From Nanobdellota archaeon (GTDB taxonomy: Archaea; Nanobdellota; Nanobdellia; Woesearchaeales; DATDXC01), in contig JBDRFR010000069.1 of NCBI GenBank assembly GCA_043818675.1, forward strand, positions 14,877 to 78,876: DNA of 64,000 nt, written 5' to 3'. A program made the translations under genes and the position numbers. Of the stretch, positions 5,201 through 28,500 are shown in pieces (position 1 is the first letter of the stretch; every line of letters starts with the position of its first letter). The notes under the pieces are model-generated. The model was not told where the DNA came from. It saw nothing but the letters and a program-made list of their open reading frames with translations, and made no database searches.

Positions 5201-5704
5201 ATGATACCCAAAGGAAAAGATGCTCTTGAAAAGGAATATAGCAGGTGTTTAAATAAAAAAACATTTGTAAAAATCAGTAATGCAAGTTATATAGATTATC
5301 TAGATGAAGCATACTTTGATTTAAATTCTGCAGAGAAGGATACAGATGAAAAATGGGCTATAACTAAAGCATATCAAGCTTTGTTTTTGACTTGTAACGC
5401 ATTATTAGTCCGAAAGCTTGGATACTATTCAAAGGATCATAGTTGCGTTATTATTTCTTTAATGAGAAATAATATTATTTCTGAAAATACCCTTGAAAAA
5501 ATTAAGGATATGCTAAATGAAAAAAGAAAATTATTTTCAGAACTGCAAAGTAAAAATAATTTATTTGATGAAATATCAAATATTAGGATTACAAGGAATA
5601 AATATCTGTACCTTCCAAAGACTCAGAGAAGGTTAAAGAGTTCTGTAAAAGGAATAATTGAGGAAGTAAAGGAATTGATCAAAATTCTGGGTGATATAGA
5701 ATGA
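5201..5704 (+). CDS. HEPN-domain protein (167 aa)
   Basis: HEPN-like helices YIDYLDEAYFDLNSAEKDTDEKWAITKAYQALFLTCNALLVRKLGYYSKDHSCVI and an R-N-x-x-x-Y motif (IRITRNKYLY). SD GGTGAGAGG lies upstream. The stop overlaps the start of the adjacent nucleotidyltransferase gene (ATGA 5701-5704). Confidence 0.55.
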   Translation: MIPKGKDALEKEYSRCLNKKTFVKISNASYIDYLDEAYFDLNSAEKDTDEKWAITKAYQALFLTCNALLVRKLGYYSKDHSCVIISLMRNNIISENTLEKIKDMLNEKRKLFSELQSKNNLFDEISNIRITRNKYLYLPKTQRRLKSSVKGIIEEVKELIKILGDIE

Positions 5705-6303
5705 TCAGTGAAATACTGCCGCTTACCAAAAATAAACTTGAGATTTTTAAATATATTTACGAGAAAAAAGGGTCTCATCTTTTGGATATATCAAAAAATC
5801 TAAAAATACACCCTTATAGTGTTCAAAAGACCTTAAAGTCTATTAAGAAATTGTTTGTCGAGAAAAAAGCAGGAAGGACAATTATTTTGTCACTTGATAA
5901 GAACCTTCCAGGTTATTTTGAACTTCTTTATCTAATTGAGGACTATAAGCTTACAATTGATAGTAAAGATTTGAAAATACTGATAAGAAATCTGAAAGAA
6001 TTCTTCTCCAAAGATAAAAATGTGCTAAGTTGTGTTTTGTTTGGGTCATTTGCGCGGAATGTTTCTGGTGAAGATATTGATTTACTATTTTTGGTTAAGA
6101 AGAGATCAGATTATGTTATTGAAAAATGTTCCCAGCTTTCAACATTATTTGGAAAAGAAGTATCTCCTTTAGTCATGTTAGAAAAGGAGTTCAAGTCTGC
6201 TTTACAAAGTAAAGAGCCAACTATTATATCGATATTGGAGCCTTCTCAGCGGCTTTTGGTTGTCGGAAAAGAATACTTTTTGAGGTTTAGTTATGATGGA
6301 TAA
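5701..6303 (+). CDS. wHTH + minimal nucleotidyltransferase (MNT-like) protein (200 aa)
   Basis: NTase signature VLFGSFARNVSGEDIDLLFLV (GS...D-x-D) preceded by a winged-helix-like N-terminus (LEIFKYIYEKKGSHLLDISKNLKIHPYSVQKTLKSI). It is paired with the HEPN gene. Confidence 0.65.
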   Translation: MISEILPLTKNKLEIFKYIYEKKGSHLLDISKNLKIHPYSVQKTLKSIKKLFVEKKAGRTIILSLDKNLPGYFELLYLIEDYKLTIDSKDLKILIRNLKEFFSKDKNVLSCVLFGSFARNVSGEDIDLLFLVKKRSDYVIEKCSQLSTLFGKEVSPLVMLEKEFKSALQSKEPTIISILEPSQRLLVVGKEYFLRFSYDG

Positions 6304-7518: not shown

Positions 7519-10500
7519 TTGATTATGGCTGCTAGTTGGTTGAATAAAGCAGGGAAAAGTAAGGTTTTGGTAGCTTTAGCTTTGTTTTGCTTACTGTTAG
7601 GGATGTTTGGCGTAGGGTTATATAATGTAGGAGCCAGTCAAGACGAACTACTAATTGAAAGAGAGAACTTGATTAATGAGTTAGGGAATTATTCATATTT
7701 ACTAAACACATCACTTAAGATTGATCATATATTTGTTGAGAATTATTCTTGTTCTTCAGTTGGATATCATACTGTTAAGGTTTTGACAGAAGGAGTGCAT
7801 GATCAATTATTTAAGTTTGGTGATGTTAATGCGTCAGCGCATAATCTGGCAACGTATTCATCCAGTATAACCAATAACACGATAATATGGTATCATTTCA
7901 ATAATGATTCTTCTGTATATGAGAATTATGGAACTGAAGAGTTAACTGCAGAAGATAGTATGGTTTTATTATTCCACTTTAACAATGATTCTAGTGTTGG
8001 TGAGAATGATACGCATGTTTATGATTTTTCAGGGAATGGGAATAATGGAACTGTGACAGGTGCTGTTTATAATTCTAGTGGGAAGTTGAATGGAGCGTTT
8101 GAGTTTGATGGTGATGGGGATTATGTTGGAACAAATTTTAATACAGATATCCAGAACTTTACTGTTTCTGTTTGGGCTAAAAGTCTGTCTGCTCCAACAA
8201 CAGGGGGTGTATATACAGCGGTTCTAGGAAGGGAGGAGAATTTTATTATTTACTGGGATGCTACAAGTGGCACATTTGATGCTACTGTTGCTTATAGGAA
8301 TTCAGCGGTTGGATGGACAGCTTCTGATTTTGGTCCTGTAAGTGCGAATGTATGGTATCATATTGTTGGGACTTACAATGGAACTACTTTGATTACTTAT
8401 AGAGATGGTGTTGAAATAGACACTTCTACATTTGGAGTTCCTCAGAGTACTTCTGATATGTTAGCAATAGGGGATTCTAGGGTTGGAGCAGGAAATTATT
8501 TCAACGGCTCAATAGACGAAGTAGCAATCTGGAACAGAAGCTTATCCGCAGCAGAAATAAAAGGCATTTACATGAGAGGGCTACCTGCACATGTTTATGA
8601 TTACTCACAATATAATAATCATATAAAAGCCAACAAAACTGATCCGTTTGAGCCAACCTTTACAGCAGCAGGTAAATATAATGGAGCGTTGGAGTTCTCA
8701 AAAGATGATTATCTAATTAAGGACAATTTCACATTAGTCGGCGGAAACGGAACAATATCATTCTGGTTCAAGCTCAAAAATAATTATGATTCAGCCAAAG
8801 ATAAACATATGATACCTTGGGAATACAGGGAAGATGATACCCCAAATAAAATGGTCATCAGGTTTGACGCAGGGACTGGCCAGTTAAGGCTTATAACATA
8901 TCCAGGTTCAGATGTACTGACAGATTCAGATGCAACTTCTTGGACAGCAGGTGTCTGGCATCATGTTGCATGGGTACATAACACTACCCATACTGTGATG
9001 TATGTAGATAATGTGTTACAGTCTGATGTTGACACAGCAACAGTTTGGTGGAATGACTTTGCAACAGAAAATAGTACGCTGTATATTGGAGCCGAATATT
9101 ATAGTGGAAAAATACAAAGTTACTTCAACGGAACAATAGACGAATTTATGTTATTTAACAGAAGCTTATCAGCAGCTGAAATATCAGACCTTTATGGTGG
9201 AAAAGCAATAACAGGATTGACTATATGGGATGATTCTGATAACAAGAAAGTATACGCAAATTACACTAAATTCTATGCAGACTATAATGACTCAAGCGCT
9301 AAGACAGCCATATACGGCGGCGGAAGATGGTGCGAGTTTGCGTTTAATAAGACAAACCTAGACTGGAGCATATATACCTACATCAATATGACCTTTAACC
9401 CCAACACATTAAGATATGAATTGATAGCCGATGGCGGTTATTTCAATAACCAGACAGAAAAACACATAGATGGTATGCCAGCTGGACAGTATTATTATAA
9501 TATATCCTGCTATGATGAGACTGGAGTTTATCAGAATGTTTCAGTTGTTGATTTTGTTAATGTTTCTGAATATGATACAGGTTTAGGTATTACGACAAGT
9601 GTTACTGCGCCTGATGTTAACCAAAATGTTATTTTTTATGCAAACTATTCAAGAAATGATGTTTGGGATGTTGATAATTGGGTTTACGGTAATGAGATTG
9701 GGAGGGTTGTGTGGAATAGTAGTTCTATAGGTAATGAAAGATATTATGATGCTATCCCGGCAGTGTTTGTTGATTTTGACAACGATGGTAAAAAAGATGA
9801 ATTTGTTATCTCTGATGGTAACTCAGGGACAATATATCCTTTTTATTCAAACGGTTCACAAATGGAATGGACAAACACACAACAAGGATATGACTCTGCA
9901 GAAATATCTGTTGGAGATTTGGATAGGGATGGTTATGAAAATGAGATAGCAGTTGGAGATTGGCTGAGCGGAACAAGTGATGTGATAATAATTAATGAGA
10001 CAGGTGCAACAGTCTGGTCAGCTGTGAGTAATGGACAGCCAATATATGCTATTGAAATTGATGATTTAGAAAATGACGGATCTCCAGAAGTTGTATTCGC
10101 TAAGACTACAGTCTTAAGCGTCTATAATATGACTGGCTCAGAAATTTGGAATTATACTCTGCCAAATTATGCTTTGGAAATAAGAATGGCGGATGTTGTG
10201 GGGAATGAAAATAAAGAGATTATTGTAGCTACTGCTTATGGGGATAAATTGATGGTATTTAATTCCTCCGGTACTAATTTATGGAACTATACTAATGGAA
10301 ATGATCCGATTTCGATTGCATTCGCAGATATTGACCATGATGGTGTTGATAACATTATTACAGGGATGAGGACCGGAAACCAAGTATATGCAATGAATGG
10401 TTCAGGATCTATGCTTTGGGGAGGGAGTAGTCTTAGCGGAGTTGCCGGACAGATAAATGAGCTTGCCACTATGGATTTGGATGGGGATGGGTATGAAGAT

Positions 10501-13500
10501 GACATTGTGGTCGGAGACCAAGCTGCTGTTAAAGGATATGATAACGATTCAACCAATCTATGGAATTTTAATTTACCCTCGGATGATATATCCTCAATCT
10601 CCGTAGGAGACATCGATAGCGATGGTGATAAGGAGATTATTGCAGGGGGCCTTACAGACGGTACAGTATGGGTACTTAATAGAACTGGCAGCTTAGAATT
10701 TAGCTATAAAATTGGAACCGGCCATATTGGAAATACCTTCTATGCAAGCTCTCCATCAACTGATATTTCTGATGTTAATAATGATGGAATAAATGATATA
10801 GGTGTTGGTATCTATCTAACTAGTGATGATAGTTATGGATATATCTTCCAGGACGTCTCCTGCACAATAAAATTCAACGATTCTGCAACTATTTATAACA
10901 TGACATGGGATTACGTTACTGACAAATGGAATTACTCAAGAACGTTTTCGAATAATGTTGTCTATGCATATAATGTAACCTGCAGTAAAGGTGGCTATGT
11001 AACTCAAATCCAGGAATCAACAGTTGATTTAACACAGACCTTAATAATATGGGACGACTCTAACTCAAAAGTAACATATGCAAATTACACCAAATTTTAT
11101 GCAAATTACACCAAATCAAACGGAACCCCATTGACAGGCAGCGGTGAATGGTGCGAGTTTGCATTCAATAAAACAGGCCTTAACTGGAGCTTTTATACCG
11201 CCTATAACATGAGCTATAATCCAACTACAAAATTATACGAGATAATTGCTGATGGCGGCTATATTAAAAATAACACAGAATCGCATATTGGCGGGATGCC
11301 TGTTGGCAATTATAGCTTTAATATTTCCTGCTATGGCGGCAAAAACTTAACAGCAACAGACACAGTAAATGTTGCTAAGTATGATACAGGTTTATCTTTA
11401 ACACAGTCAAATGTTCATGCTGATATTAACACAGATGTTGAGTTCTTTGCTAATTACACAAGAGATACTGTATGGAATGTGGACAACTGGTTCAGAGATT
11501 CAGGAGAAATTGGCAGAGTTATATGGAATAGCAGTGATGTTGGAAACAGTCTTGTTGCACTAAGACCAGCTGACTTATCTAATGACGGATATCTGTCTGA
11601 TATAGTTACAGTAAATGACTACAAGATTATTGCACACTATCAAAACGGATCAGTAAGGTGGACTTTTTCAACTGGAGTTATCCAACAGGCAGGATCCTTA
11701 AACATTGTCAATCTGGATAACGACGGATTTAAAGATGATATAATTACAAAATTCTCTTATAACATATTTGTCCTTAATAAGACTGGTGATCAACTAAACA
11801 AAACAACTGTTGCAGACGGCGGTTGGGGAATTGGAGTTGCTGGTGATGCAAATAATGACGGAATAGAAGATGAGTTAGTAGTATCAGGCGTAAATTCTAA
11901 TCCGGCAATATTATACAATATATCTAACAGCGGACTTTCTGTTGTTAAACAATGGAATTTTTCAGTACCAGATGATATGAGGGAAGTAATATTCGGAGAT
12001 TTTGACTCAGACGGTTTGGATGATGATTTTGCAATTAGTGGAGTTGATTCAGGAAAAGGAACTTATGTTTATAAATGGAACGGGACAAATTTATTTAATG
12101 TAACTTATGGTGGACTTGCTATTGCCAAAGCTGATATTGACCATGATGGTTTTGAAGATGATATAGTGATTGCAGAAAACGGCAATTATCTTGTTTATTC
12201 TTTTAATGGAAGCTATAATACAAAATACACAAGCACAGATGAAGCAATGGTATACAATACAGATCCAATATCAGTATCCGCAGAGATGATTGTACTGGAT
12301 TTGGATTCAGACGGATTTAATGATGACATCATACTGGGAGATAGAGGCGGAGCAGCTGGACCTGGAATTGTCTGGGCATTTGACAACAATAGTATTGGAT
12401 TGTGGAATATCACATTACCTGCAAACGGAGATGATGATTACATCTATTCCATGGTCGTTGATGATTTTAATAACGATGGTAAACAAGAATTGATCTTTTC
12501 CAGTGAAGAGTTTGATAAAGTTTATGTTGCCAATCTGTCAGGATATGTACTTTGGGACCAGATCATTGGACAAGGAGATATCTCAGTGATTAAAGGAAAA
12601 TCTCCTGGCATCATAAGTATTGACATAAATAAAGATGGAATTTCTGATTTTGCGACCGCTTCCGCAAATGGTTTTGTCCATGTTCTGCAGGACGTATCCT
12701 GCACAATCCAATATGAATCAGAAGGTGGAGAGATTAACAGGACTGGTCAGAATTGGGAAAATGGTTTAGTTGCTCTATATCATTTTAATAATGAGTCTGC
12801 ATATGGCGAAACAACTGTTGGAGTTAATAATGTAACGTATGACTTTGCACCAGGTCACTGTTATGATAACGAAACAGAAATACTAACTAATGAAGGCTGG
12901 AAATTATTTTCAAAATTAAATAAAACTGAGCAAGTAGCAACATTAAATCAGGAAACAAAAGAATTGGAATGGCAGCATCCAATGGAATATCAAGAGTTTG
13001 ATTATGACAATGATATGTATAAGATTATATTGGAGGATGGATCAGATTTACTTGTTTCAGAAAAACATAGGGTTTATGGAAAATCAGTAAGCATCATCGT
13101 GATGAGTGAAATCTTCAAAGATGATCTTATTTTCTCTGACCTGGAAAGTCAGGACAAAATGCCCCACATGAACTCTTTTGAGATGGCTCAAATCCCCTTT
13201 GAGGTTCTTAAGGTGATTGATGGTGACAATATCCATTTCAGAAATTTGGATAATTTTTCTACTCAAAGCTTTGAAGAGAACAGGGTCTTTTCTCTTAATC
13301 TTGATCAGAGCCTTATCAATCTTGGAAATGTCAATATTCATAATTCATCCAGCCACTTTTTTAGTTCTTCGGGAGTCATTGCCTTGCCTTTAGCTGGGTC
13401 TTTAGATATTTTCTTTAACTTTTCTATGAACTCAGGCTTCATAGGAAATTCATCTAATGGATGCCAGTCAATAGATTCACAAAACTGCTCATCTTCCCTA

Positions 13501-16500
13501 GTTAGTTTCCTTGATACACGAAATTCTTCAAATATTCTTCGCTTGTTCAATTCCTCTCTAGCTGCTTCAGACCAGTTTATCCATGGAAATGCTTCAATTC
13601 TTGCCTTAAAGGATTTGTCTACAGGATATATTATACTAGCCATTTATAATTCACCCCTTGCCCTTAATTTTTCTAATGCTTCTAATTTCTTAAGCACACC
13701 CTGTTTTGCAACTTCAGACCAATTAATGTCAGGATGCTTGTCTAACTTTGCCTTAAAATCATCAGGTACTGATATAGTAAACCTTTCCATTTTTGATGCC
13801 TCCTGGATGATACAAGATAATAAAATTTTGGGTTCATCCAACAATTGTATTACTAAACACAATTGTGTTTATAAATCTTTTGATAATTTCAAGTTGATGC
13901 CTATAACTGATGCGTATGGGCTAATCAATTCAGGAAAACAGGTTTATTTCCTGGATGGTTTTAATAATGAGGTTAAAGTTAAGTCGATTGTTAAAGAAAA
14001 GTACAATGGCAGAATATATGATGTCGATGTAAAAAATGATGTTGTTTTGGTAAGAAGGATTGATAGGAATAATCGCACAAATAATTATGATAAAAAAGCC
14101 ACGCAAGCAGGAAAAAATTCATGCCACAATTCTGGGAAATATTGTTATGATAAAAGGACTAAGGAAAACTTCTTTTCTGAAAATGAGGATGGTTTGGGTA
14201 TATTGAGTGAGAGGGGTTATGAAACTAATTATTATGGTATATGGTCTGGGAATAGCAATAACGGAACTATTTATGGTGCTACAGTTGATATGACTGGTGG
14301 GAAGTGGAATGGGAGTTTGGAGTTTGATGGGGCGGGGGATTATGTTGATGCTGGAGATACATTTGATATGGGAACAAATGATCTGTCATTATCTGTATGG
14401 TTTAAAACATCTGATAGTGGTTCAAAAATTAAAACAATTATTTCAAAATCTTATGCATGGGATACAGGTGCATATAATTTGATTATTACTGCTGGTAATA
14501 ATCTAAGACTTCATGCTGAGAATAATACTGGTCAGGGTGAAGTAGATATAATAAGTCCTCTAACTTATACTGATGGACAATGGCATCATGCAGTAGGTAT
14601 TTTTGATAGAGATAAAAATGCAATATTATATGTTGATGGATCTGAAGTTGGTTCAACAACAATGGCAAATATTCTTAATCAGGATCTGGATACTACCTAT
14701 TCATTTAGAATTGGAATGTCACATTGGAATAGTTGGCCCAGACCTTTCAACGGCTCAATAGACGAAGTTGCAATTTGGAACAGAAGTCTTTCTGAATCTG
14801 AAGTCTGGGACTTGTACATGTCGTCAGCACCAAAATATAACATGACATGGGACTATACAAGAAAGAAATGGAACCATACAAAACAGTTCACTTCATACGG
14901 TAATTATACTTACGGAATAACATGCGAAAAAGGCGGCTACACAACCCAAAGAAGCTCAAGTTATGTTGATCTAACCCAATCATTAACAATATGGGATGAT
15001 TCTGATTCAAAAACAGCCTATGCAAATTACACCAAATTTTATGCAAATTACATAAGATCAAACGGAACAGCAATGAACGGAAACTATTGGTGCGAGTTTA
15101 AGTTCAATAAGACAGGCAGATGGACAAAACCAGTCAATATGAGCTTTAATCCAGTAAGCTTACAATATGAAATAATTGCTGATGGCGGATATATTCAGAA
15201 TTCAACTGAAACGCATATTGACGGGATGCCTACTGGAAATTACAGTTACAATATCTCCTGTTATGGTGGTGAATATAAATCACTAACAGATACTGTAAAT
15301 ATAGCAAAATATGATACTGCACTTGCTTTAACCCAAACAAACATCCATCCAAATACCTATTCAGATGTTGAGTTCTTTGCTAATTACACAAGGGCTACTG
15401 TATGGGATGTAGACAACTGGTGGTGGGATACAACTGAGATTGGGAGGGTGGTTTGGAATACAAGTGCTCTTGGAGGGAGTTCACATACTGTTGATTTCTT
15501 TGATTGTTTGAATAGTGGAAAGAAAAATTGCCTTGCGACCACAGAATATTCTGATATCTGGATGTTTTATCCAAATGGAACACAGATTACAGCATCTGGA
15601 ACTGCCTCAAATCCAGGAGGAGATTTATTAGATGCTAATGTTTTTGACGGAGATGGAGATGGTTATGAAAATGAGGTTCTTATTGTTGGAGATAATAATC
15701 AGGTTTTAGTTGTTAACGAGACAAGAAATACTGTGTATACCTATACTGCTGGAGGAGATATTTTTTCTGTTGTTGGAGCTGATTTAGATAACGATGGAGT
15801 CAAAGATGATTTTGTTATTGGTGCTTATACTGGGTCTGTTTATCAGGTCATGGCATTTAATACTTCTGATGGAGTTAATTGGGTGAATTTTTGGAACGGA
15901 ACTGTTGGAGGAGTTATTCAGGAAATGGTTATTGGTGACTTTGATAGAGATGGAAGGGAGATTGATGTTGCTGCTACAGGGACTTCGAATGGAAATGTTA
16001 CTGTTTTTGTTGGGGATAATGGAACATTGATATTTAGTACTGTTGACCTTGGGGCATTATCTTCACTTACAGTGTCTGATTTGAATCATGATAATTACAA
16101 TGATGAGATAATCGTGGGGGAGACGGGTGCCACTAGGGTTCTTGCGTTTAGGTGGAATGGGACATGGGGAGCAGAAATGCAAGATACAGACAATGATACT
16201 AATGGTTGGCTTTGGTCAAACACTCTTCCAACATACAGTATTACTGAAATTGATACTTTTGATGCAGATTTAGATGGTTACAAAGATGAGATTATTTTTG
16301 AAGATGGAGGCAGTTCATCAAACTCAAAAATTTGGGCAGTGGATGAAGAGGGCAACTACTTGTGGAATTTTACATGGGGGAACACAATTGATGTTTCATA
16401 TAGTCTTAATGTTGCTGATGTGAATAACGATGGAAAGGATGAGATAATTTTTGGACCTAGGAATGCTGCTACATTGTATGTTTTGAATATCTCTGGAGAT

Positions 16501-19500
16501 TTATTGTGGAGTTATCCTCTTAATCAGGGTTGGATTGGTAATGCTTATGGAACTTCTCCAGGGATAGATATTTCAGATTTGAATAATGATGGTATAAATG
16601 ATATTGTAGTTTCAACTAATACTGTGGGTTATAAATATATTTTCCAAGACGCTAAATGCTCAATCCAATACGAATCAGAAGGCGGGGAGATTAACAGAAC
16701 AGGTCAGAATTGGGAAAATGGTTTAGTTGCTTTATTTCATTTTAATAATGAAAGTGCATATGGCGAAAACAGCAGCTATATTTATGATTTCTCAGGTAAT
16801 GATAACAATGGAAGTTGTACAGGTACAACATGCCCAACCTTTGATACAACTAGTGGAAAGTGGAATGGTAGTTTTGAGTTTGATGGCGTGGATGATTATG
16901 TTGCAATGTCTCAGGATGATAGTCTAAATTTTTCAGGAGATAGTGAGATTACCATTTCCTTTTGGGCTAAACTTGTATCAGCAGATAATAGGCATGCTGT
17001 TATTGGGGCGTGGGATGGTGAGTCTGGTTCTACTTCTGCTTATCTCTATATGGACAATTCTGGAGCTAATGGAATTATTATCAAGAATACAATAGGAGGT
17101 GATACTGGAATTAGAACATCAAGCACATCTTTTAATTTAAACACTTGGTACCACATAGTTTATACTTTTAATGGTGTCTTAGAGACAGTCTATCAAGATG
17201 GCACTCAAATTGATACAAATGATATAAGTGGAACCATGCGTAATAATGGTGAGACAGGTCCTTGGGTAGGTCATGCAATGAATGATGGAACAACTCCAGT
17301 ATATTTCAACGGCTCAATCGATGAAATCGCAATCTGGAACAGATCATTATCCGCATCAGAAGTTTGGGATTTGTATATGTCATCAGCACCAAAATATAAC
17401 ATGACATGGGACTATACAAGAAAGAAATGGAACCATACAAAACAGTTCACTTCATACGGTAATTATACTTACGGAATAACTTGCGAGAAAGGCGGATATA
17501 CAACTCAAAGAAGCTCAAGCTATGTTGATCTGACTCAGTCATTAACTATATGGGATGATTCCGATTCAAAAACAGTCTACGCAAATTACACCAAATTTTA
17601 TGCAAATTACAAAAGATCAAACGGAACCGCATTGAACGGTAATTATTGGTGCGAGTTTAAGTTCAATAAAACAGGTATATGGACAAAACCAATCAACATG
17701 AGCTTTAATCCGGTTTCCCTACAGTATGAGGTAATAGCAGATGGTGGATATATCCAAAACTCAACTGAATATCACATTGACGGTATGCCAAACGGTTATT
17801 ATGGGTATAATATAACATGTTACGGTGGTGATTATAAATCATTAACAGATATGGTCAATGTTTCTTTATATAATACAACTTTGGGAGTCAGCAGGAATAA
17901 TCTTGCGCCAGAGGTGAACGTTGTTACAACATTTTATGCAAACTATACAAGAAATGATGTATGGGATGTTGATAACTGGAAATTGGGACATGAGATTGGG
18001 AGGGTTGTTTGGAATACTAGTTGTCCAACATGCGGCAGTGTTTCTGCTATACCTGAATTTGTAGACTTCAATGAAGACGGTAAGAAAAGTGAATTATTCA
18101 TTCTTGCTGATGGTTTCCCTTATGCTATTTCAAGTAATGGTTCTAAGATCTGGACAAGTTCAACAGAGAGATATGTTCCTAGCCAAGCAGTAGCTTTTGA
18201 TGGAAATGGAGATGGATATGATAATTATGTTGTTGCAGTTGAGGATGTAAATTCTGGTTCAGGTATACGTGTGTATAACAGTACAGGGAATATCATTTGG
18301 GAATGCGGCTTTCCCGGAGACTTTATGTCTGTTGTTGCAACTGACTTAGATAATGATGGAAAGAAAGATGATTTTGTTGTAATTGATACATATACTCCTG
18401 TGGGTAATGTTTCCGCATATACTACTACTAACGGGCAAACATGGGTGATTAATTGGAGCCATATATTTCCAGCGACTAATACCGCAGATGGATCTATTAA
18501 GATAGGAGATTTAGACAACGATGGAAAAAAAGATGATTTTGCAATTGCAGGTGTGGAATATACGATTGCCCTAAATGAAACTGGAGGCGTTATATGGAAC
18601 ACAACTGACTTAGTTGATAGAGTAAATGGTGTTGGAATTGGAGATTTTGACCATGATGGTTATGAAGATGATGTGATTGTAGGGAATAGGGGATATTTAT
18701 ACATCTTCACTTTTAATGGAACTTATGGAGTTACATATACTACAAATGATGCAATTGCATCTTCTTCCTACCCTAACAGTGGAACACAATCAACTGTTAC
18801 TAGTATAGTTGTATTTGATTTGAATAATAATGGATTTAAAGATTCATTTGCTTTATCAGACATAACATATGATTCCATAGGTGTTTTTGACAACAATACT
18901 AATAATGTTTGGTTCCACAATACAAATGATTTTGGTGATGGAAGCATAGATGTAAATACTGTACGGGCAAGTGATTTTAATAATGATGGCAAAGATGAAC
19001 TGATGTTTGGTGCAGATAACGGGCTTATATATATTTTTAACAGCACAGGTTCTCTTTTGTGGAAATATGTTTTGATAGATCACGTGGGGGAGTCTTCTAG
19101 AGAGGATGCCGTTAAATCAGGCGACATCAATAATGATGGAATCTCTGATTTTGTAGCTGTCACTGTGAATTCTTACACTTACATATTCCAAGACGTATCC
19201 TGTTTCATAAGATTCAACGATTCAACATCAGTCTACAACATGACCTGGAACATAACTTTAGACAAATGGCAGTACCAAAGGACATTTCCTGACGTATCAA
19301 GATATAAATACAACATCACCTGCTCAAAAGGCGGATACATTACACAGTTTACAAACACTTCTTTTGCAACAGAAGACGGAAACCCAAGATGGAGTTCAAA
19401 TAAGACTAACCTAACAAGAAATTCACCATATTTAGCAGATGTCCATTTCAACATTACATTAAATGACATCAATCCAGCATCATACATATTCAGCTGGTAT

Positions 19501-22500
19501 AATGGGACTGCATGGGAGAATAATTCCCCTGTAAGTTATGATGATAATACAGAAATCTCTGTTACAAAAACATTAAACATAAGAAACGAATCTGCTGCTA
19601 TCAGCTGGACATTCTACTTTAATGATACTGTTGGAAATAATAATCAAACAGATGTATGGAGCATTACAGTTGATAATATACTGCCAAGGATAGATTATTC
19701 AGGTGGAACTAACGCAGATGGCGAAAACATAGCTAAAAATTATATTTATGTCAATGTATCAGTTACAGAAGAAAATGTTGATAAGGTATGGTTTAACCTG
19801 TACAATGATGATTATTCTTTGAACAAAAGCATGATACATGGTGAGTTACCAAATTATAGACCTGAGACTTATATTAATATGACCGGCAATGTACTTTTAA
19901 TGCATTTTAATAATGACAGTTCTGTTAGAGAGAATTCAACACATGTTTATGATTGGTCAGGTATGGGGAATAACGGGACTGTTTATTTTAATTCATATCC
20001 AAACCTAACAAACCCTAAGCTTGGTTTAGGAGCATTTTCATTTGACGGAACTGATGACTTTATCAATATATCTGACGTTCCATCATTAAGGTTAACTTCG
20101 ACAGGTACAATATCTATGTGGATCAAACAAAGCGGTGCAGACCAAGATCCATACGCTACATATGTAGGAAAAACCAGGGGTGGTGTGACAGCTACAATTG
20201 CATATATTCTTTACCATAGAGATTCAGAAGGTACAATTAGGGGAACTATCTGTAATGATGCTAACTGTGACTTGATCCAAACACAGGAATTTGCTCAATC
20301 AGATGTTGATTGGCATCATCTGGCATTTACATGGGACAGCGTAAACTTATCTTTATATAAAGACGGCATTTTGTTTAATAAGACCCCTCAAACCCGAAGC
20401 GTAGATAATGATGCAGGAGATCATCTCAAGATTGGCGGATATGGTTTCAATGATGTGGGAAGTGATGATTTCAGCGGTTTAATGGATGAGGTTGCAATCT
20501 GGAACAGAAGCTTAAGCGCAGATGAAATAAGAGACATATACGAGATCCAGAAATCTGCATATTACCATAACTTTACAGTATCAGACGGAACATATCATTA
20601 CAATGTTACAGTCAATGATACTTCTGGTAATCAAAATGTTACAGCAACAAGAAGTGTTTCACTGGATCCAACTTATCCTAAAGTTTCATTTGTCTCTCCA
20701 ACTTATAGTGATGGTAAGTTTACTAAGAATACTTCTATTCCAATAAATGTAACAATAACAGAAGCTAATCTTGACAGGATAATATATGAATGGGATGGTG
20801 TTAATGAAACAGACTTCAAGCTGGATGCGCCAATAACTGAAGTAAACTTTACAGTCTCAAGCTTAGAAACTTTAACTGTAAGTAACGGTTCCCATAAGAT
20901 TGATCTGTTTAATGATAGTTCTCTTGTGTTGGCTATGAGTTTTGATAATTTGTCTGCTCTTGGAGAGAATGATACTCATGTGTTTGATTGGAGTGGGGGT
21001 GGGAATAATGGGGCTGTTTATGGAGGAACTGACGCTGATTCTGGTTTCACAACGAGCGGGAAATATTCAGGAGGACAGATGTTTGATGGGGAGTGGGATT
21101 ATGTTTTTGTTAATGATTCAGATGTATTCAGTGGAAATTTGGCGATATCTTTATGGATAAATGCAAAACAATGGAGTACAGATGGAACACTGGTAAGAAA
21201 ACTAGATGAGTGGCAATTAGATATTAATGATGGTACTGTGGTTAGATTTTGTGATACTGCGGCATGTAGCGATATTGCTACTTCTGAATTGAGTTTAGGT
21301 AAATGGTATCATGTTGTGGGAATTAGAAATAGTTCTGGAGTAGAGTTATTTGTAGATGGGATAAGTCAAGGATATGTTGCAGACCCAATTGCTTCAAGAA
21401 CAACTAGTCATGTTTATATTGGTGCAGAGGAAGGAGCGTTTGACTTTTTCAACGGCTCAATAGACGAAGTAAGAATCTACAATCGTTCTCTTTCTGCCTC
21501 AGAAGTTGCAATGCTTTACAAATCTAATCTAAGAAAATACGACGTAAACAAATATAATTTATTTTTCAACCAATCAGGAAATTTCAGTTTAACCTACAAC
21601 ATTAATCAAAACACAACAATCAACCTAAGAAAAAACAGCACCAGAAACTACTGGCTGGATATCAATAAGCAAAGTTTAGCTGATGATTCCTACGCTTACA
21701 GAGTATTTACAAAAGACGACATGCAAAACTGGAACAGCACAGAGCAAAGAACAGTAAATGTTGACCTGGAAAGCAGGATTGTATTAGGCGATGACTCAAA
21801 CAACAAAAAAGTTTATGCTAACTACACAAGATTCTATGCAAACTTTACAGATGTTGAAAACAATACAATAAACGGTTCAGGGTATTATTGTGAGTTTGCT
21901 TATAATAAAACAAACCTGGCATGGAACAGATATACAGTAACAAACATGAGCTATAATCCAATTACAACACAGTATGAAATCATAGCAGATGGTGGATATA
22001 TACAAAATGCAACAGAGAGTCACATTGATGGAATACCTGTAGGACTTTATTATTATAATATAACATGCAAAGACTCAAGCGGGGGCTACACAGCAATCTC
22101 AACTGTTGACCTTGTTAATGTTTCTGAATATGACACAAACATAGCAGTAACCCAATCAAACATCCATCCAGATACAAACGCAAATATCGAATTCTTTGCA
22201 AACTATACAAGGGATACTATGTGGGATGTGGATAACTGGTGGTGGGATACTAAAGAAATCGGAAGGATTGTGTGGAATAGTAGTGAATATGGTGCGCTTT
22301 CAGATACTGTGTATTTTGTTAAGGCTATGGACTTAGATAATGATGGAGAAATGGATGAAATTGTTATAGGGGGTATACCCACCATGGAAGCTTTTAGTTC
22401 AAATGGAAGCTGGATTTGGTCAAAAGCCGTTCATAATTATGATACACATTTTGAAGTATGGGATCTAGATAACGATGGCTATAAAAATGAAATCTTAACA

Positions 22501-25500
22501 GGAACAAATGGGGGCGATGTAAAAATTATTAATGAATCTAGTGCAAATGTTGCAGTATGGAATAGTTATAGTTATGGGAGTAATGGGGGGACTATGATAT
22601 TAGGAGATCTAGATAATGATGGATTTAAAGATGATTTTGTAGCTGTAATAGATACAGGCAGCGTTAGAAAAATTCTTGCTTGGAATACCTCAGATTATGT
22701 AACCTGGGTCAATTTTTGGAATTATAGCCTTCCTCATGACATTTATATAGATCAATTAATAGTATCTGACTTGGATGGTGATGGGGATGATGATATCGCA
22801 GGCTCGGTCACTGCAAATGATCCAAGATCGTATACGTTTGCCTTAGTAGGACACAATGGATCCGTACTTTGGAATACCACATCCAATTATGACCAACTTT
22901 GTTATTCATTGATTGCTTTAGATATGGATCATGATGGACTTAAAGATGATATAATTACCGGTTGCACAGGAGATATACATAATTTTAGTTTAAATGGAAC
23001 TTATGGAGCAACATATACTCCTTCGTTATTTAATAATTCACCAACTGGAAATATTTTAGAAATAGCAGCGATTGATTTGGACAATGATGGATATGAAGAT
23101 GAGATTATTGTAGGTGATACAGGAGTTTATAACACTGGTCCAGGATATGTAAGAGCTTTTAATAAAAATGGAATTGAAGAATGGAATTTTGAATTGCCTC
23201 CCACAGGTATTGCTGATGGGGACGATATTGCATCGCTGGTTGTGGGAGATGTGAATAGTGATGGGAAAAAAGAAATAGTGTTTGGTAATGAACAGCTTGA
23301 TACAATTTATGTTTTAAACAAATCAGGATCATTATTGTGGGAATATAAAATTGGATTAGGTAATATCGGATCATCAAGCGATGAATCACCAGGTATTGAT
23401 CTGACTGATATCAACAACGATGGTATTCTTGATATTGTAGCTAGTTCACTAACAGGTTATGCACACGTTCTTCAAGATACAACATGTACAATTCAATACG
23501 AATCAGAAGGCGGAGAGATAAATAAAACAGGAACTAATTGGGATGATGGACTTGTAATGTTAATGCACTTTAATAATGAATCAGCATACGGTGAAACAAC
23601 AGCCGGAATTAATAATGTAACATATGACTTTTCAGGTAATGGCAATAACGGAACAATATATGGTGCAACGTTTAATGCAACCGGTGGTAAATGGAACGGA
23701 AGCTTTGAGTTTGATGGGATTGATGATTATATTGAATTAACAGATATGAACATTAATGATGAATTCACAGTTTCAATGTGGTTCAAAGCTAAAAAGTTAC
23801 AAGACGGCGCTACTTTAATTGGTGATTTGGACAATATTGGAGGTAATGAGGGTTGGTCCATAAGATACTTAACTTCACTAGGTAATGAATTGCACTTCAG
23901 TTTTGATGGAACTACATGTGGATGGACCAATTACGACCTTACTGGGATTAATCCGGATAATGACAACACTTGGCATTTTATTTCTGTTGTCTTTACAAAC
24001 AATACTGTCTCTTGGTTTTATGATGGAACTACTGAAGTTGATAGTCACAGTCAGCAATGTGTAGTTGAAGATTCTAATGAGAATATCAAAATTGGCGTCG
24101 CTTCCAGAGATACTTTCCCAATAAGTGCAAGCGGACACTTCAACGGCACAATCGATGAAGTAGCAATCTGGAACAGATCATTATCAGCTGCAGAAGTTTG
24201 GGACTTATACATGTCATCAGCACCCAAATACAACATGACATGGGACTATACAAGAAAGAAATGGAACCAAACAAAACAGATAACGACATACGGCAACTGG
24301 ACTTATGGCATAACATGCGAGAAAGGTGGATATGTAACCCAAAGAAGCTCAGGTTATATTGACATGACTCAATATTTGACAATATGGGATGATTCTGATT
24401 CAAAAACAGTTTATGCTAATTACACTAAGTTTTATGCTAACTACACAAGATCGAATGGAACTGCATTGAACGGTAACTATTGGTGTGAATTTAACTTTAA
24501 TAAAACTGGAATTTGGACAAATCCAGTCAATATGAGCTTTAATCCAACAACAACACAGTATGAAATAATCGCTGACGGCGGATACATACAGAATTCAACA
24601 AAAACGCATATTGACGGGATGCCGGTTGGAAATTACAGTTATAATATAACATGTTATGGTGGGGATTATAAGTCTCTAACTGACACAGTTAATATTGCTG
24701 AGTATGACACAGTTTTATCAATACTTAATGATACAGATAAAACTGTTGGAGAAAAGATAAAATTCTATGCTAACTATTCAAGAGTTGACCCATACAAAGT
24801 AACTAACTGGAAATTAGGTAAAGAGATTGGGAGGATTGTTTGGACTGATAATTTAACAACTGACACAGAATTGATATCTATTACGTCTTATGATATGGAT
24901 AAAGATGGAAAAAGAGATGAACTTGCAGCTGCGGTAAGGGATCAAAATACCGGAGAATTAGCCTATTTTTATCCAAACGGTACATATAAATGGATCTATT
25001 CAGTTTCCTGGGATTTTACAGAGAGCATATTTGCAGGAGATTTAAACGATGATGGTTACTATAACGAGATATATTATCCAATGGTGGGTGAACCCGCAAT
25101 ATTTAATGAATCAGGAGACCAGGTGTGGACAGGCAGCATCACTTACCCGGCAATGCAGTTTGAGGGAGCCTTACTTCTGGATATTGACGGAGACGGACAA
25201 AAAGATGATCTGGTTGTGGTAAATGCTACTGGTGTGTTTGCATATAATACATCTGATGGGATTACCTGGCATAATTTATGGAACTATTCTCACCCAATCA
25301 GTCTTGGCTTAAACAATCTGTGGGATGCTGCTTCAGGAGATCTGGATAATGATGGTAGAGATGATATTCTGTTGGGAACATATCTCCCTCCCAATTTATA
25401 TGTGATCAATTCCACCGGTAGTCAAATGTGGAATTATTCCTACATACAATACGGACTGGCAGTTGAATTGATAGATCTTGACAGTGACGGCAAAAAAGAT

Positions 25501-28500
25501 GAAGTTATCCTGGGTAGTCTATATCAAATTATCCATGGTATAAATGGGTCTGGCGGACATCTGTGGAACATATCTGGCGGAAATCTCAGGCATTATGAAC
25601 TTAATGTTCTTGACCTGGATGATGACGGATTTGAAAATGATTTTGTTGTAGGTGATGCCAATGGAAATGTCACAGCATATAATGCTTCTCTGACAAACCA
25701 TGACATGATGTGGTCAATTGATCTAAACGGGGTAGGGGCTAATGATATCTATTCAGTTTCAAATGCAGATATAAATAATGATGGAATAAAAGAAATTCTA
25801 GTGGGTGGAGAAGATGCAATTTTATGGGTTTTAGATAAGTCAGACGGAAGTGTCCTGTGGGATTATACTGTCGGAACAGGAGACATTGGATCAGGGGCTG
25901 GAAAATCCAGAATAACAACCACAGATATAAACAATGATGGAATAAACGAGATTATTGTGGCATCACGAACAAACGCACAAATCCACACCTTCCAGGATGT
26001 AAACTGCATCATAGAAATCAGCGACGGAACATCAGCTGACATGAATTATAACTCAACCTCCAGAAAATGGGAATACAATAAAACATTCATTATTGCAGCT
26101 GACTACGAATATAATGTAACCTGCACAAAGGGAGGATATACTGAACAGGTACAAAGCTCTACTTTATCAGTTGCAAGCTTAAGGACATATCATCAGCCGT
26201 CAGCTGTTTATTCAAACTATACAAGGTTTGTCGCTAATTTCACTGAAGGCACTGGCAAATGCAGGATGAAATACAATAAGACAGGCATATGGAGCAGCTG
26301 GCATAACATGAGCTGGAATGGGACGATAAACGCGTTTGAGCTTGAAGCTGACAATGGGTATAGAAGAGGGCATATGCGCTCAATGCCGGCCGGAACTTAT
26401 GACTATTATATTGACTGCAATAACTCTTTAGGCCAGGCTGTAAATGCAACAGATTCGATAACTGTAAATGATTATGATACAAACCTATCAATATCAAACA
26501 CTAATAATAATCCAGTTATCGACCAACCTATCATTTTCTATGCTAACTATTCAAGAGTTGATCCATACAAAGTAGATAACTGGAAATTAGGAAATGAGAT
26601 TGGACAGGTTGTATGGAATACAAGTGATATTGGCACAAATGCAAATGCGATCGCAGCCATTGACCTGAACAATGATGGAAAGAAAAATGAGTTAATAATA
26701 GTAATGGACAGTGATATTACTGGCTTGTATGCAAATGGCAGTGAGAAGTTCAGCCAGACTTCTGGCATAGGTAATTCAATCTTAGATATAGCTGTTGGTG
26801 ATTTTGACAATGATGGTTATGAAAATGATTTTGCAATTGTAAGAGGCGCAAGCACCCTCGAGGTGTTTAATGAAACAGGCCAGGAAGTATGGGAAAGCGG
26901 CGATTACGGATCTACGCCTGCAATACCGGCTATAGGAGACTTTGATGGAGATGGCATCAAGAATGATTTCTTTATGATGGATGGCGGAAGTGTTTTTGTT
27001 TTTAACTCAACAGAAGGAAAGGTTTGGAGCGAGAGATGCAGCATTACGCATGGTGCCAACGTTTATGCTGGATATGATGCTATAACAACTAGAATTTATG
27101 ATTCATCTAAAGATGATATAGTTTTTGTTTCCAGTGAGAATAGTGCAACACCTGGCATTTGGGCGATTAATACATCATCTATTGGAACATGCAAACAATA
27201 TTATAATGGTTCAGGGAATTTATTTAGATCACTTGATGTTCTGGATATTGACCATGATGGAATTGAAAATGAATTTGTTGTAGGTGAAAATGGAGATGTA
27301 CTTGTATTTAATTTAAGCTTAGATATAATCCTTAGTGATTCTACACCTGATGATAATATTTGGGAGATCAGAAAAATTGACCTGGATAATGATGGATTTA
27401 AGGATGATTTTGTCGCTTCAGAAGATAATCCTCCAAGAATCAGGGCGTATGATAATAATTCTGATTTGAACTGGACATTTAATACTGGCGAATCTGCAGG
27501 AGTGTCTATCTTTTCGATGGAAATAGCTGATGTTAATAATGATGGAATAGAGGATATTTTATTTGGAACAAGCACTGGTATTGTTTATGCTGTTAATATT
27601 AGTGGAAACTTAATGTATAAATATGATATTCAATTAGGAACAATCGGAAATGACAACTCAAGAGCTTCATCAACAGACATCTCAGACATAAACAACGACG
27701 GAATAAATGATGTAGCAGTTGCATCCTTTGATGGCTACGCACACATCCTTCAGGATTCATCCTGCACTATAAAATTCACAGACGGATCATCATACAACAT
27801 GACCTGGAACATAAGTAAAGACAAATGGCAGGCAAACAAATCATTCAGATTAGCAGGGACATACAGCTACAATATTACATGTAATAAAGGCGGATACATA
27901 TCACAAAACCTAACTGCAAGCATTACAGCTGCAAAACAAGGTTCATTCTGCGATTGGGGAAGCTTAGCTACAACATGCCATATTAATACAAGCATAACTG
28001 TAAAGAATAACTACCAATTAAACGCATCCAACATAATAATCCATGAGCTTGGAAACCTATACAATAATTCAGGCATAAGCTTCATAATAAATCTAACCGG
28101 AAACCTAACAATAAAAAGCAGCGGAACAATCAATTTATCCGCAGCAAACTGCGCAAGCGGAACTTGCACAAACGGCGGAAACCTGACAATTATTGCATCC
28201 ACATTCAACCTAAGCAGGGGTTCATTTATTTATTCCAATGGCGGCTCTTTAACATCTGATGGAACCAAGGGTGGTAGTGGAGGAATAATAAATATCACAG
28301 CCAGATCATTCTATTTTGACGGAAATATAACATTAGATGGTGGAGATAATGCAGGAACATACAGTACTGGAGATGGAGGCATAGGTGGCACCATGGTTAT
28401 AGATGTTAATACCAACCTTAACATAGGTGGTAATCTGCTTGGAAAAGGCGGAACCGGAAGATCAAACATCTGCGCTGCAAATAGCGGCAGCAGGGGTAAT

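Follow-up and report, generated by a model that had tools for sequence, protein, structure and literature searches.

A probable intein in a giant archaeal surface-protein gene with a predicted antisense toxin–antitoxin operon in its endonuclease slot

We analysed 64,000 nucleotides (nt) of a contig assigned to a Nanobdellota archaeon (JBDRFR010000069.1, assembly GCA_043818675.1, positions 14,877 to 78,876 of the forward strand); this whole stretch is called the window below and coordinates refer to it. The window is archaeal, since it encodes aRF1. It contains a giant surface-protein gene in which 466 additional codons break one LamG leader motif. These codons probably represent a class-1-type intein whose endonuclease slot holds a type II toxin–antitoxin (TA) operon lying antisense to the host gene, with the host frame kept open throughout and the TA module acting as a persistence device. 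Beyond this single copy we lean, with less confidence, towards a general proposal: inteins of DPANN archaea would have swapped their homing endonuclease (HEN) for exchangeable, antisense, stop-free TA cassettes on a conserved built-in promoter, giving a new composite selfish element in which TA addiction replaces homing and dual coding is kept by selection over 0.6–1.6 kb.

The host gene is one uninterrupted open reading frame (ORF) of the plus strand (7519-43815) in the ORF listing of the window: its product of 12,098 amino acids (aa) comprises LamG (Laminin_G_3) and FG-GAP repeats and a HerA/FtsK-type ATPase at the end. In the interrupted repeat the leader ...NNVTYDF is followed by APGH-CYDNETEILT at 12847 (APGH begins at aa 1777, the Cys is codon 1781 at nt 12859), the W of YYGIW ends at 14244 and the motif continues as SGNSNNGTIYGAT from 14245. 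Sister sites of the form D[FW]SGxGNNG at 8026, 16789, 19954, 20989 and 23629 in the same gene are all five empty; the copies at 23.6 kb and 16.8 kb read NNVTYDFSGNGNNGTIYGAT and YDFSGNDNNG, respectively. A first-pass annotation of this DNA had reported the ORF, an insert of 1,398 nt in the LamG motif and five unoccupied sites, and each was confirmed where it had been placed. The position of the 1,398 nt can slide, as the element has ...SGN at its own end. The ends proposed at that time had to be moved: comparison with relatives gives 12859-14253 followed by Ser+1, with APGH on the N-extein side and SNNG on the C-extein side, and the relatives form an intein family with conserved ends, not an ordinary LamG loop expansion. 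In a scan of the window with a hidden Markov model (HMM) of the Hint N-lobe the element at 12859 was the sole one listed. The features of the element and its empty counterparts are as follows.

12826..12858, plus strand: end of the N-extein, LamG leader NNVTYDF plus APGH, with His at -1
12859..14253, plus strand: the intein itself with its 465 codons, Cys1 at one end and the terminal Asn of IWSGN at the other (family boundaries, profile matches, AlphaFold2 and Foldseek)
12859..13080, plus strand: N-terminal Hint lobe with block A CYDNETEILTNEG (12859-12897) and block B DGSDLLVSEKHRVYG (13036-13080)
13882..14058, plus strand: C-terminal Hint lobe, closing with block F GRIYDVDVKNDVVLVRR (14008-14058); C-lobe HMM score 102
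14059..14238, plus strand: F–G loop of variable length, about 60 aa in this copy, with many K, N, D and E residues and a non-conserved CHNS (14122-14133)
14239..14256, plus strand: block G IWSGN (14239-14253; terminal Asn 14251-14253) and Ser+1 (14254-14256), where the C-extein starts as SNNGTIYGAT
23626..23652, plus strand: best empty-site control in the same gene, NNVTYDF followed directly by SGNGNNGTIYGAT
8023-8049, 16786-16812, 19951-19977 and 20986-21012, plus strand: other empty sites, from motif comparison within the gene

As judged from these data, the insert is a real class-1-type intein of 465 aa that runs from Cys1 to IWSGN and is followed by Ser+1. Matches of the single sequence to intein profiles were weak but concordant (TIGR01445 intein_Nterm, E=1.8e-4; PF14890 Intein_splicing, E=1.2e-3; Hint_2), and the relative P0001 carries a precomputed PF14890 match that is marked weak. 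The AlphaFold2 model reaches a predicted local distance difference test score (pLDDT) of about 95 for both Hint lobes (residues 11-98 and 343-415) and stays below 50 for the centre and the F–G loop; a strand is predicted at the block G residues. When this model was compared with the PDB by Foldseek, the top 50 matches were all Hint-superfamily structures, mostly inteins, with probabilities of 0.93-1.00: among them are the inteins gp41-1, NrdHF, NrdJ-1, DnaB and DnaE as well as bacterial intein-like (BIL) and hedgehog domains. The in-frame Hint/intein element suggested earlier for the conserved LamG leader is thus borne out by profiles, relatives and structure prediction; its location in an archaeal extracellular repeat protein, an unusual place for an intein, stands as well.

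The conserved residues define the two ends. Blocks A, B and F, the RR after VVLV and the CHNS at 14122-14133 are all located where the first-pass annotation had seen them. Block B holds the S-x-x-H motif as SEKH (13057-13068), the block F residues Y-D-V-x-V-x-N are invariant in the family, and C1, S77, H80, D398, N475 and S476 (family alignment) vary little or not at all. Each of the 35 distinct complete relatives ends in ...VLVRR, then the loop, then hWSGN/S (the slash marks the junction), and HEN-bearing relatives in ThyX and other proteins end in ...FSGN/C, ...WAGN/S or ...FLGN/S; because this ending is shared by both groups, we assign block G to IWSGN and the +1 nucleophile to Ser 14254. 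S-x-x-H is present in 33 of the 35, a Cys1 at the canonical position in 24, and His at -1 in nine of these 24. The penultimate His is replaced by Gly in the window intein, as it is in the HEN-bearing P0009, P0010 and P0014; DnaE split inteins likewise lack it. The absence of His-Asn had been taken as the mark of an atypical or cleavage-only Hint, an interpretation that does not survive the uniform hWSGN/S of the family and the like endings of its HEN-bearing relatives. Taken together, Cys1, SxxH, the block F Asp, the terminal Asn and Ser+1 form what we read as the pattern of a splicing intein, not that of a cleavage-only BIL or pretoxin-HINT (PT-HINT) domain. Splicing would yield ...YDFAPGH-SNNGTIYGATVDMTGGK, with the junction stretch ...VTYDFAPGHSNNGTIYGATVDMTGGK; the predicted product YDFAPGH-SNNGTIYGAT is one residue longer than the empty motif (sister YDFSGNGNNG).

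Two other interpretations of the C-terminal part were discarded. The motif CHN/S (14122-14133), previously a candidate for the C-terminal junction, is conserved in no relative and sits in a loop whose length varies from 5 to 145 aa in the family (mode 5-6), which rules it out. The segment behind block F was also considered as a diverged duplicate of the LamG leader or a P-loop extein remnant (APGH...SGKY); this idea was rejected because the sister copy is a clean contiguous empty site and the loop is merely variable in relatives. As a further observation on the N-terminal end, the remaining 11 of the 35 complete members do not possess the CYDNETEILT strand and start with ...K-C-Y-[IKV]-[EK]; they represent an N-terminally shortened variant.

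L015:9712, L017:2599, L022:839, L024:2974, L025:4889, L029:5998, L031:5968, L032:2395, L038:5968, L039:2596 and L039:5968: inteins with the shortened N-terminus

With a pLDDT of about 28, the sense-frame peptide of the slot (266 codons) has no Pfam or NCBIfam match and contains no endonuclease domain of the LAGLIDADG, HNH or another type. Both the GC and the AT skew flip between about 13.1 and 13.9 kb, and the slot is filled by three abutting or overlapping ORFs on the minus strand in the order A1, A2, T. As far as the sequence tells, the slot at 13084-13881 is the reverse complement of a three-gene type II TA operon. The first-pass annotation had read the plus strand alone, and the skew reversal and the three minus-strand genes had escaped it.

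13790-13644, minus strand: A1, small antitoxin/repressor of 48 aa (MERFTISVPDD...), ribbon-helix-helix (RHH)-like, ending directly before the start of A2
13643-13338, minus strand: A2, antitoxin-like, 101 aa, N-terminal FPWINWSE and a DUF2683-like C-terminus, with a 4-nt overlap (ATGA) with the toxin start
13341-13084, minus strand: toxin T, 85 aa, RelE/ParE/YafQ superfamily, codons in register with the host frame
13791..13881, minus strand: expression signals of the operon, inside the intein coding sequence
13881-13876, minus strand: AAAAGA, resembling a transcription factor B recognition element (BRE)
13875-13868, minus strand: TATA-like box TTTATAAA
13871-13854, minus strand: perfect 18-nt palindrome TAAACACAATTGTGTTTA, operator-like, overlapping the BRE/TATA-like motif
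13803-13799, minus strand: ribosome-binding site GGAGG, 8 nt before the ATG at 13790

A1 matches the VapB antitoxin model NF050799 (E=4.9e-5) and RHH_1 (E=0.006), and PF26688 RHH_12 is the precomputed annotation of its homologues at other loci. A2 belongs to an antitoxin cluster of 48 distinct resident proteins, i.e. proteins encoded by cassettes inside inteins; in the two-gene cassette of L007 a 101-aa protein of this cluster lies directly upstream of the toxin, and L019 has an upstream gene of 91 aa. The toxin is matched by TIGR00053 (YafQ family) at E=3.4e-9, and a profile of its family finds M. jannaschii RelE3 in the PDB (3bpq_B, E=5e-4). ParE_toxin (PF05016) matches seven of 21 relatives at E<=0.01 (best 3.1e-6) and the window toxin alone at E=0.031. 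A PADLOC scan of the three cassette proteins gave no match. We furthermore predict that the operon has signals of its own: an archaeal-type promoter, a palindromic operator-like site and a ribosome-binding site. The distance from the promoter motif to the first gene suggests either leaderless (-28) or Shine–Dalgarno-led (-55) transcripts. On the plus strand the promoter stretch reads ...CVYKSF in the window and corresponds to a peptide motif conserved in the family, [LVI][YF]K[SG]F; at the DNA level a BRE/TATA-like motif occurs at the junction of cassette and C-lobe in 31 of 44 cassette-bearing relatives, as against 5.4% of random segments.

The host frame runs open through the whole cassette. 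Over 266 codons the three plus-strand frames contain 0, 20 and 29 stops, the frame with none being that of the host, and the toxin gene uses no TTA, CTA or TCA codon; its TGA stop is read as Ser (TCA) on the plus strand. Given the three proteins of the window, an open host frame has a probability of about 1.3e-3 (0.006 for the toxin alone). Among relatives, synonymous resampling of 96 distinct resident genes gave 145.6 expected host-frame stops and none was observed, a comparison that is not a formal probability because resident genes are related. Taken together, the 11 resident RelE genes have 88 Leu and 38 Ser codons, none of which is TTA, CTA or TCA; CTC, otherwise rare, makes up half of the Leu codons. 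Free-standing genes behave differently: a toxin at L081 that is 63% identical to that of the window has 4, 8 and 13 antisense stops, the one at L012 has 7, 8 and 2, and the HEPN/MNT pair at 5201-6303, which served as a control within the window, has 20-27 in every frame. Divergence among resident genes, counted in the minus frame, rises from the second over the first to the third codon position (0.33/0.41/0.61 for second, first and third position in RelE, 0.24/0.32/0.53 in DUF433), so the minus-strand proteins are under purifying selection; for in-register genes it is the first plus-strand codon position that varies most, so the plus frame is not under selection at the protein level. N- and C-lobe share a single open frame in about 45 of the 51 inteins in the family. 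That host ribosomes must pass through the cassette is the only sensible reading of the open frame, and such read-through is likewise the only explanation we have for the codon avoidance of the toxin.

We collected the family by scanning GTDB species-representative genomes and with local HMMs, which gave 51 inteins, located almost exclusively in assemblies of DPANN archaea and mostly in metagenome-assembled genomes of Nanoarchaeota, Woesearchaeota, Pacearchaeota and Aenigmarchaeota. The LamG-repeat leader motif and a few other sites in giant surface proteins are the insertion sites. A database search with the insert as query returned two groups: LamG proteins (P0001, P0003, P0005 and P0007) that match over 86-92% of the length, and inteins with LAGLIDADG_3 in ThyX, ribonucleotide reductase, ThyA and a phosphohydrolase, which match in the N-lobe alone with 41-57% identity. 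When the N-terminal lobe itself is compared with those of the inteins in ThyX, ribonucleotide reductase and ThyA proteins, identities span 41-74%. The closest canonical relatives of the family carry a LAGLIDADG homing endonuclease between blocks B and F, and no HEN-bearing member was seen at LamG sites among the family inteins. All family slots longer than 500 nt are occupied by minus-strand genes. About 50 related inteins have antisense cassettes, and all 106 matches of TA HMMs inside inteins are antisense. A complete slot cassette is missing in two of the 51 (L009 and L013). The residents fall into the following groups.

Antitoxins: 48 distinct proteins
PIN_2: 27 proteins (Pfam, E=4e-20)
RelE-like: 11 proteins
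DUF433: 10 proteins (E=5.5e-18)
DUF5615: 10 proteins (E=2.5e-15)
DUF2283 (E=8e-11) with a PBECR3-like protein: a further resident pair

Some members hold two cassettes in tandem. At L009:6436-7004 and L017:7105-7649 an antitoxin+RelE cassette is found in the F–G loop, replacing the slot cassette or added to it, so the Hint fold offers two permissive sites; the 60-aa F–G loop of the window intein may be the remnant of a cassette insertion. The nearest intein core was found in 'Archaeon BMS3Abin17'; L010, the nearest core to that of the window (72% identical), holds a PIN cassette, not RelE. Cassette types are exchanged between closely related intein cores and do not follow the core phylogeny. 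As side observations on the family, L001, L003 and L011 each contain two family inteins 2.3 kb apart and L002 three N-lobes: in such loci successive LamG repeats of one gene are occupied by inteins with different cassette types (RelE, PIN), and some of these genes are frameshifted after the intein. Family inteins were also found on contigs binned as Rickettsiales, Atribacterota, Methanosarcinales or Methanobacteriota (L040, L041, L030 and L051); since the context of these contigs is LamG/DPANN-like, they are probably mis-binned and not from true hosts. Public gene calls are fragmented in this family (P0015-P0045, L080), because callers take either the host ORF or the antisense TA genes and leave lobe stubs of 80-230 aa.

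We propose the following working model. The codons of the operon would be chosen such that no stop arises in the host frame, and a ribosome on the 36-kb host mRNA would pass over about 266 codons complementary to the operon and make from them an unstructured peptide, which would leave the protein together with the intein by protein splicing. The operon itself would be transcribed against the host gene from its own promoter, its products being expressed and toxic; the TA module would then retain the intein, by addiction or by countering deletion, in a highly repetitive, recombination-prone gene and would take over the role in persistence of the homing endonuclease. In return the intein would offer the cassette a place within an ORF where any peptide is tolerated. 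Antisense transcription might in addition affect the host mRNA.

A number of points weigh against this model. The whole case rests on sequence, and the addiction role is purely inferential. Curated cut-offs were missed in the Hint part (PF14890 19.1 bits versus 35.8, TIGR01445 22.4 versus 24.5), which we attribute to the long insert that splits the domain, and the TIGR00053 match of the toxin also lies under its subfamily cut-off. A sequence-profile search of the PDB with the mini-intein core gave nothing at E<=0.01, with inteins at the top of the list at E 0.05-0.5. The window intein does not have the penultimate His, and the 60-aa insertion before block G could slow or impair C-terminal cleavage in this copy. 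Inteins are rare in exported proteins, and several relatives are frameshifted or fragmented. Finally, at L077:1672-3309 (and likewise in L078) two tandem RelE-type cassettes with genes of 48, 100 and 85 aa and of 101 and 85 aa lie between unrelated genes: one antisense frame is open for 546 codons, the other two frames having 42 and 52 stops, and Pfam detects no Hint domain in the antisense ORF or its neighbours and no N- or C-lobe is recognizable nearby. The stop-free property is therefore not strictly tied to the intein family. The cassettes may have escaped from an intein recently, their host may have decayed, or a different kind of ORF may be hosting them.

The same L077/L078 cassettes favour an alternative in which TA modules are mere passengers, i.e. 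mobile, antisense-stop-free units that use tolerant intein loops as a safe harbour in compact genomes and bring the intein no benefit. This is possible, if clearly less probable than our model: tandem cassettes, the use of two Hint loops (the B–F slot and the F–G loop) and the shuffling of cassette types among close cores would all be expected of passengers, whereas the scarcity of inteins without a full slot cassette (two of 51, and L009 has one in its F–G loop), the fact that no HEN-bearing member was seen at LamG sites and a promoter motif that is conserved at a fixed junction whatever the cassette type look like an integrated architecture. The two explanations differ solely in who benefits. 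A degenerate or cleavage-only Hint of the BIL/PT-HINT kind, which would not ligate its exteins and would either stay in the protein or cut it in two, is unlikely. The missing His-Asn, the 60 aa ahead of the last strand, the BIL domains among the Foldseek matches and a secreted, hypervariable host, which is typical for BILs, point in that direction; however, all 35 relatives have retained the terminal Asn and Ser+1 (Cys1 being canonical in 24 and part of ...KCY in 11), HEN inteins of housekeeping enzymes share the GN/ end, and YDFAPGH-SNNGTIYGAT gives back the LamG motif, one residue aside, in both length and pattern. The Hint profiles that had been recommended as a check returned the weak PF14890, TIGR01445 and Hint_2 matches and no PT-HINT match at E<=1, and the idea that cleavage produces two independently anchored arms of the protein found no support.

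Two further readings appear very improbable to us. The host gene might be functionally split at the cassette, with the lobes made separately and joined by trans-splicing as in 'fractured genes', the open frame being incidental. Fractured genes with a gene between the halves of a split intein are known (PMC2677866), and in a few relatives the lobes do lie in different frames; but an open frame is found in about 45 of 51 inteins and none of the roughly 146 expected stops occurs, the C-lobe is not preceded by a start codon or the context of a ribosome-binding site, and read-through alone accounts for the codon avoidance of the toxin. Alternatively, the minus-strand ORFs might be shadow ORFs of a degenerate endonuclease region, or the toxins themselves might be the homing nucleases of the element. 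AT-rich coding DNA does yield long antisense ORFs by chance (178 codons for the longest elsewhere in the window), and PIN and RelE proteins are nucleases. Shadow ORFs would hardly show significant matches to five TA families, a divergence by codon position that favours the minus frame, a plus-frame peptide without family match (pLDDT about 28) and free-standing homologues that are ordinary TA pairs; likewise, the sharing of one slot by unrelated RNase-type toxins argues against a site-specific DNA endonuclease. We thus retain an intein with an antisense TA operon as the preferred explanation.

If it is true, this would be the first found case of an intein whose nested selfish function is a TA module and not a homing endonuclease, and it would change the view of how inteins persist; it would also represent a natural route for whole operons to live inside giant genes without breaking them. 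Long antisense overlaps occur naturally and in large number in this family (about 50 elements, five TA gene families), and the constraint per strand is clear: one strand makes folded proteins, the other need only avoid stops, which makes for a clean system for studying the evolution of overlapping genes. Since gene callers pick one strand, counts of TA modules and the apparent integrity of giant surface genes in DPANN annotations are biased. In the adhesin-like extracellular proteins of episymbiotic archaea that host these inteins, surface-protein expression could be modulated by conditional splicing or by antisense transcription.

Several observations concern the surroundings of the element. 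The HEPN/MNT pair used as a control (5201-6303, plus strand) lies just upstream of the giant gene and is an ordinary, free-standing TA-like module of a HEPN protein (E=2.3e-5) and an MNT/Pol-beta nucleotidyltransferase. At the other end of the giant gene (40999-43812, plus strand) a transmembrane segment is followed by the HerA/FtsK-type (DUF87) ATPase at the end of the protein, and a split second version of this pairing is found at 56097-62446 on the minus strand, with a PKD-repeat protein of 1,342 aa and then a DUF87 ATPase of 774 aa. The cumulative GC skew turns inside the giant ORF at about 28000-30000: it is positive before about 29 kb and negative after, and the turn coincides with the switch from LamG/FG-GAP modules to a different repeat architecture. 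An antisense ORF of 176 aa at 28311-28841 has no family match.

Among known systems, the LAGLIDADG-bearing archaeal inteins P0008-P0014 (in ThyX, ribonucleotide reductase, thymidylate synthase and an MPP phosphohydrolase) are among the closest to the window intein: they share the Hint lobes, an N-lobe that starts with C[YF]D..TEILTNEGWK, a block F/G part that ends in ...V.VRRNG...[WF][SA]GN/[SC] and additional DNA at one site, just past block B. In contrast to these, the slot in the window contains an operon on the opposite strand, and its sense frame encodes unstructured filler and no endonuclease domain; the host belongs to the extracellular LamG repeat proteins and not to the enzymes of nucleotide or DNA metabolism, and no homing mechanism is apparent. 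With type II TA modules (RelBE/ParDE/YafQ-DinJ, VapBC-PIN, DUF433/DUF5615 and DUF2283 pairs) the cassette shares small proteins, the order antitoxin-then-toxin with a 4-nt overlap or abutting genes, an RHH-type antitoxin and a palindrome that overlaps the promoter, and free-standing homologues of cassette genes occur in the same genomes as resident ones. Unlike an ordinary type II module, however, the one in the window lies wholly inside the coding sequence of another gene, antisense to it, and is recoded such that one antisense frame is stop-free across genes, spacers and promoter. In 'fractured genes' (Dassa et al. 2009, PMC2677866) a free-standing endonuclease gene is flanked by the halves of a split intein, which resembles our case in having a separate gene between the N- and C-terminal parts of an intein; there trans-splicing joins the products of a physically split host gene around a gene for a homing endonuclease, whereas the window shows a continuous frame and a TA operon on the opposite strand. 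BIL and PT-HINT domains have the Hint fold and secreted, repetitive, fast-evolving hosts in common with the window intein, which gave no match to either family in Pfam at E<=1; the window family, by contrast, keeps Cys1, the terminal Asn and Ser+1 and is nested in a clade of true inteins. Engineered alternate-frame gene insertions (bioRxiv 10.1101/2024.11.07.622342) and long overlapping genes in antisense likewise have two frames on one DNA over hundreds of codons, which ties the fates of two genes together. By contrast, the overlap presented here is natural, recurs in about 50 elements with five toxin/antitoxin families, and one of its two products is predicted to be discarded by splicing. 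A literature search that left most subscription journals outside its reach, so that absence is not proof, found no description of TA modules or antisense genes inside inteins. The parts, an intein and a type II TA module, are known; we regard their architecture together as new.

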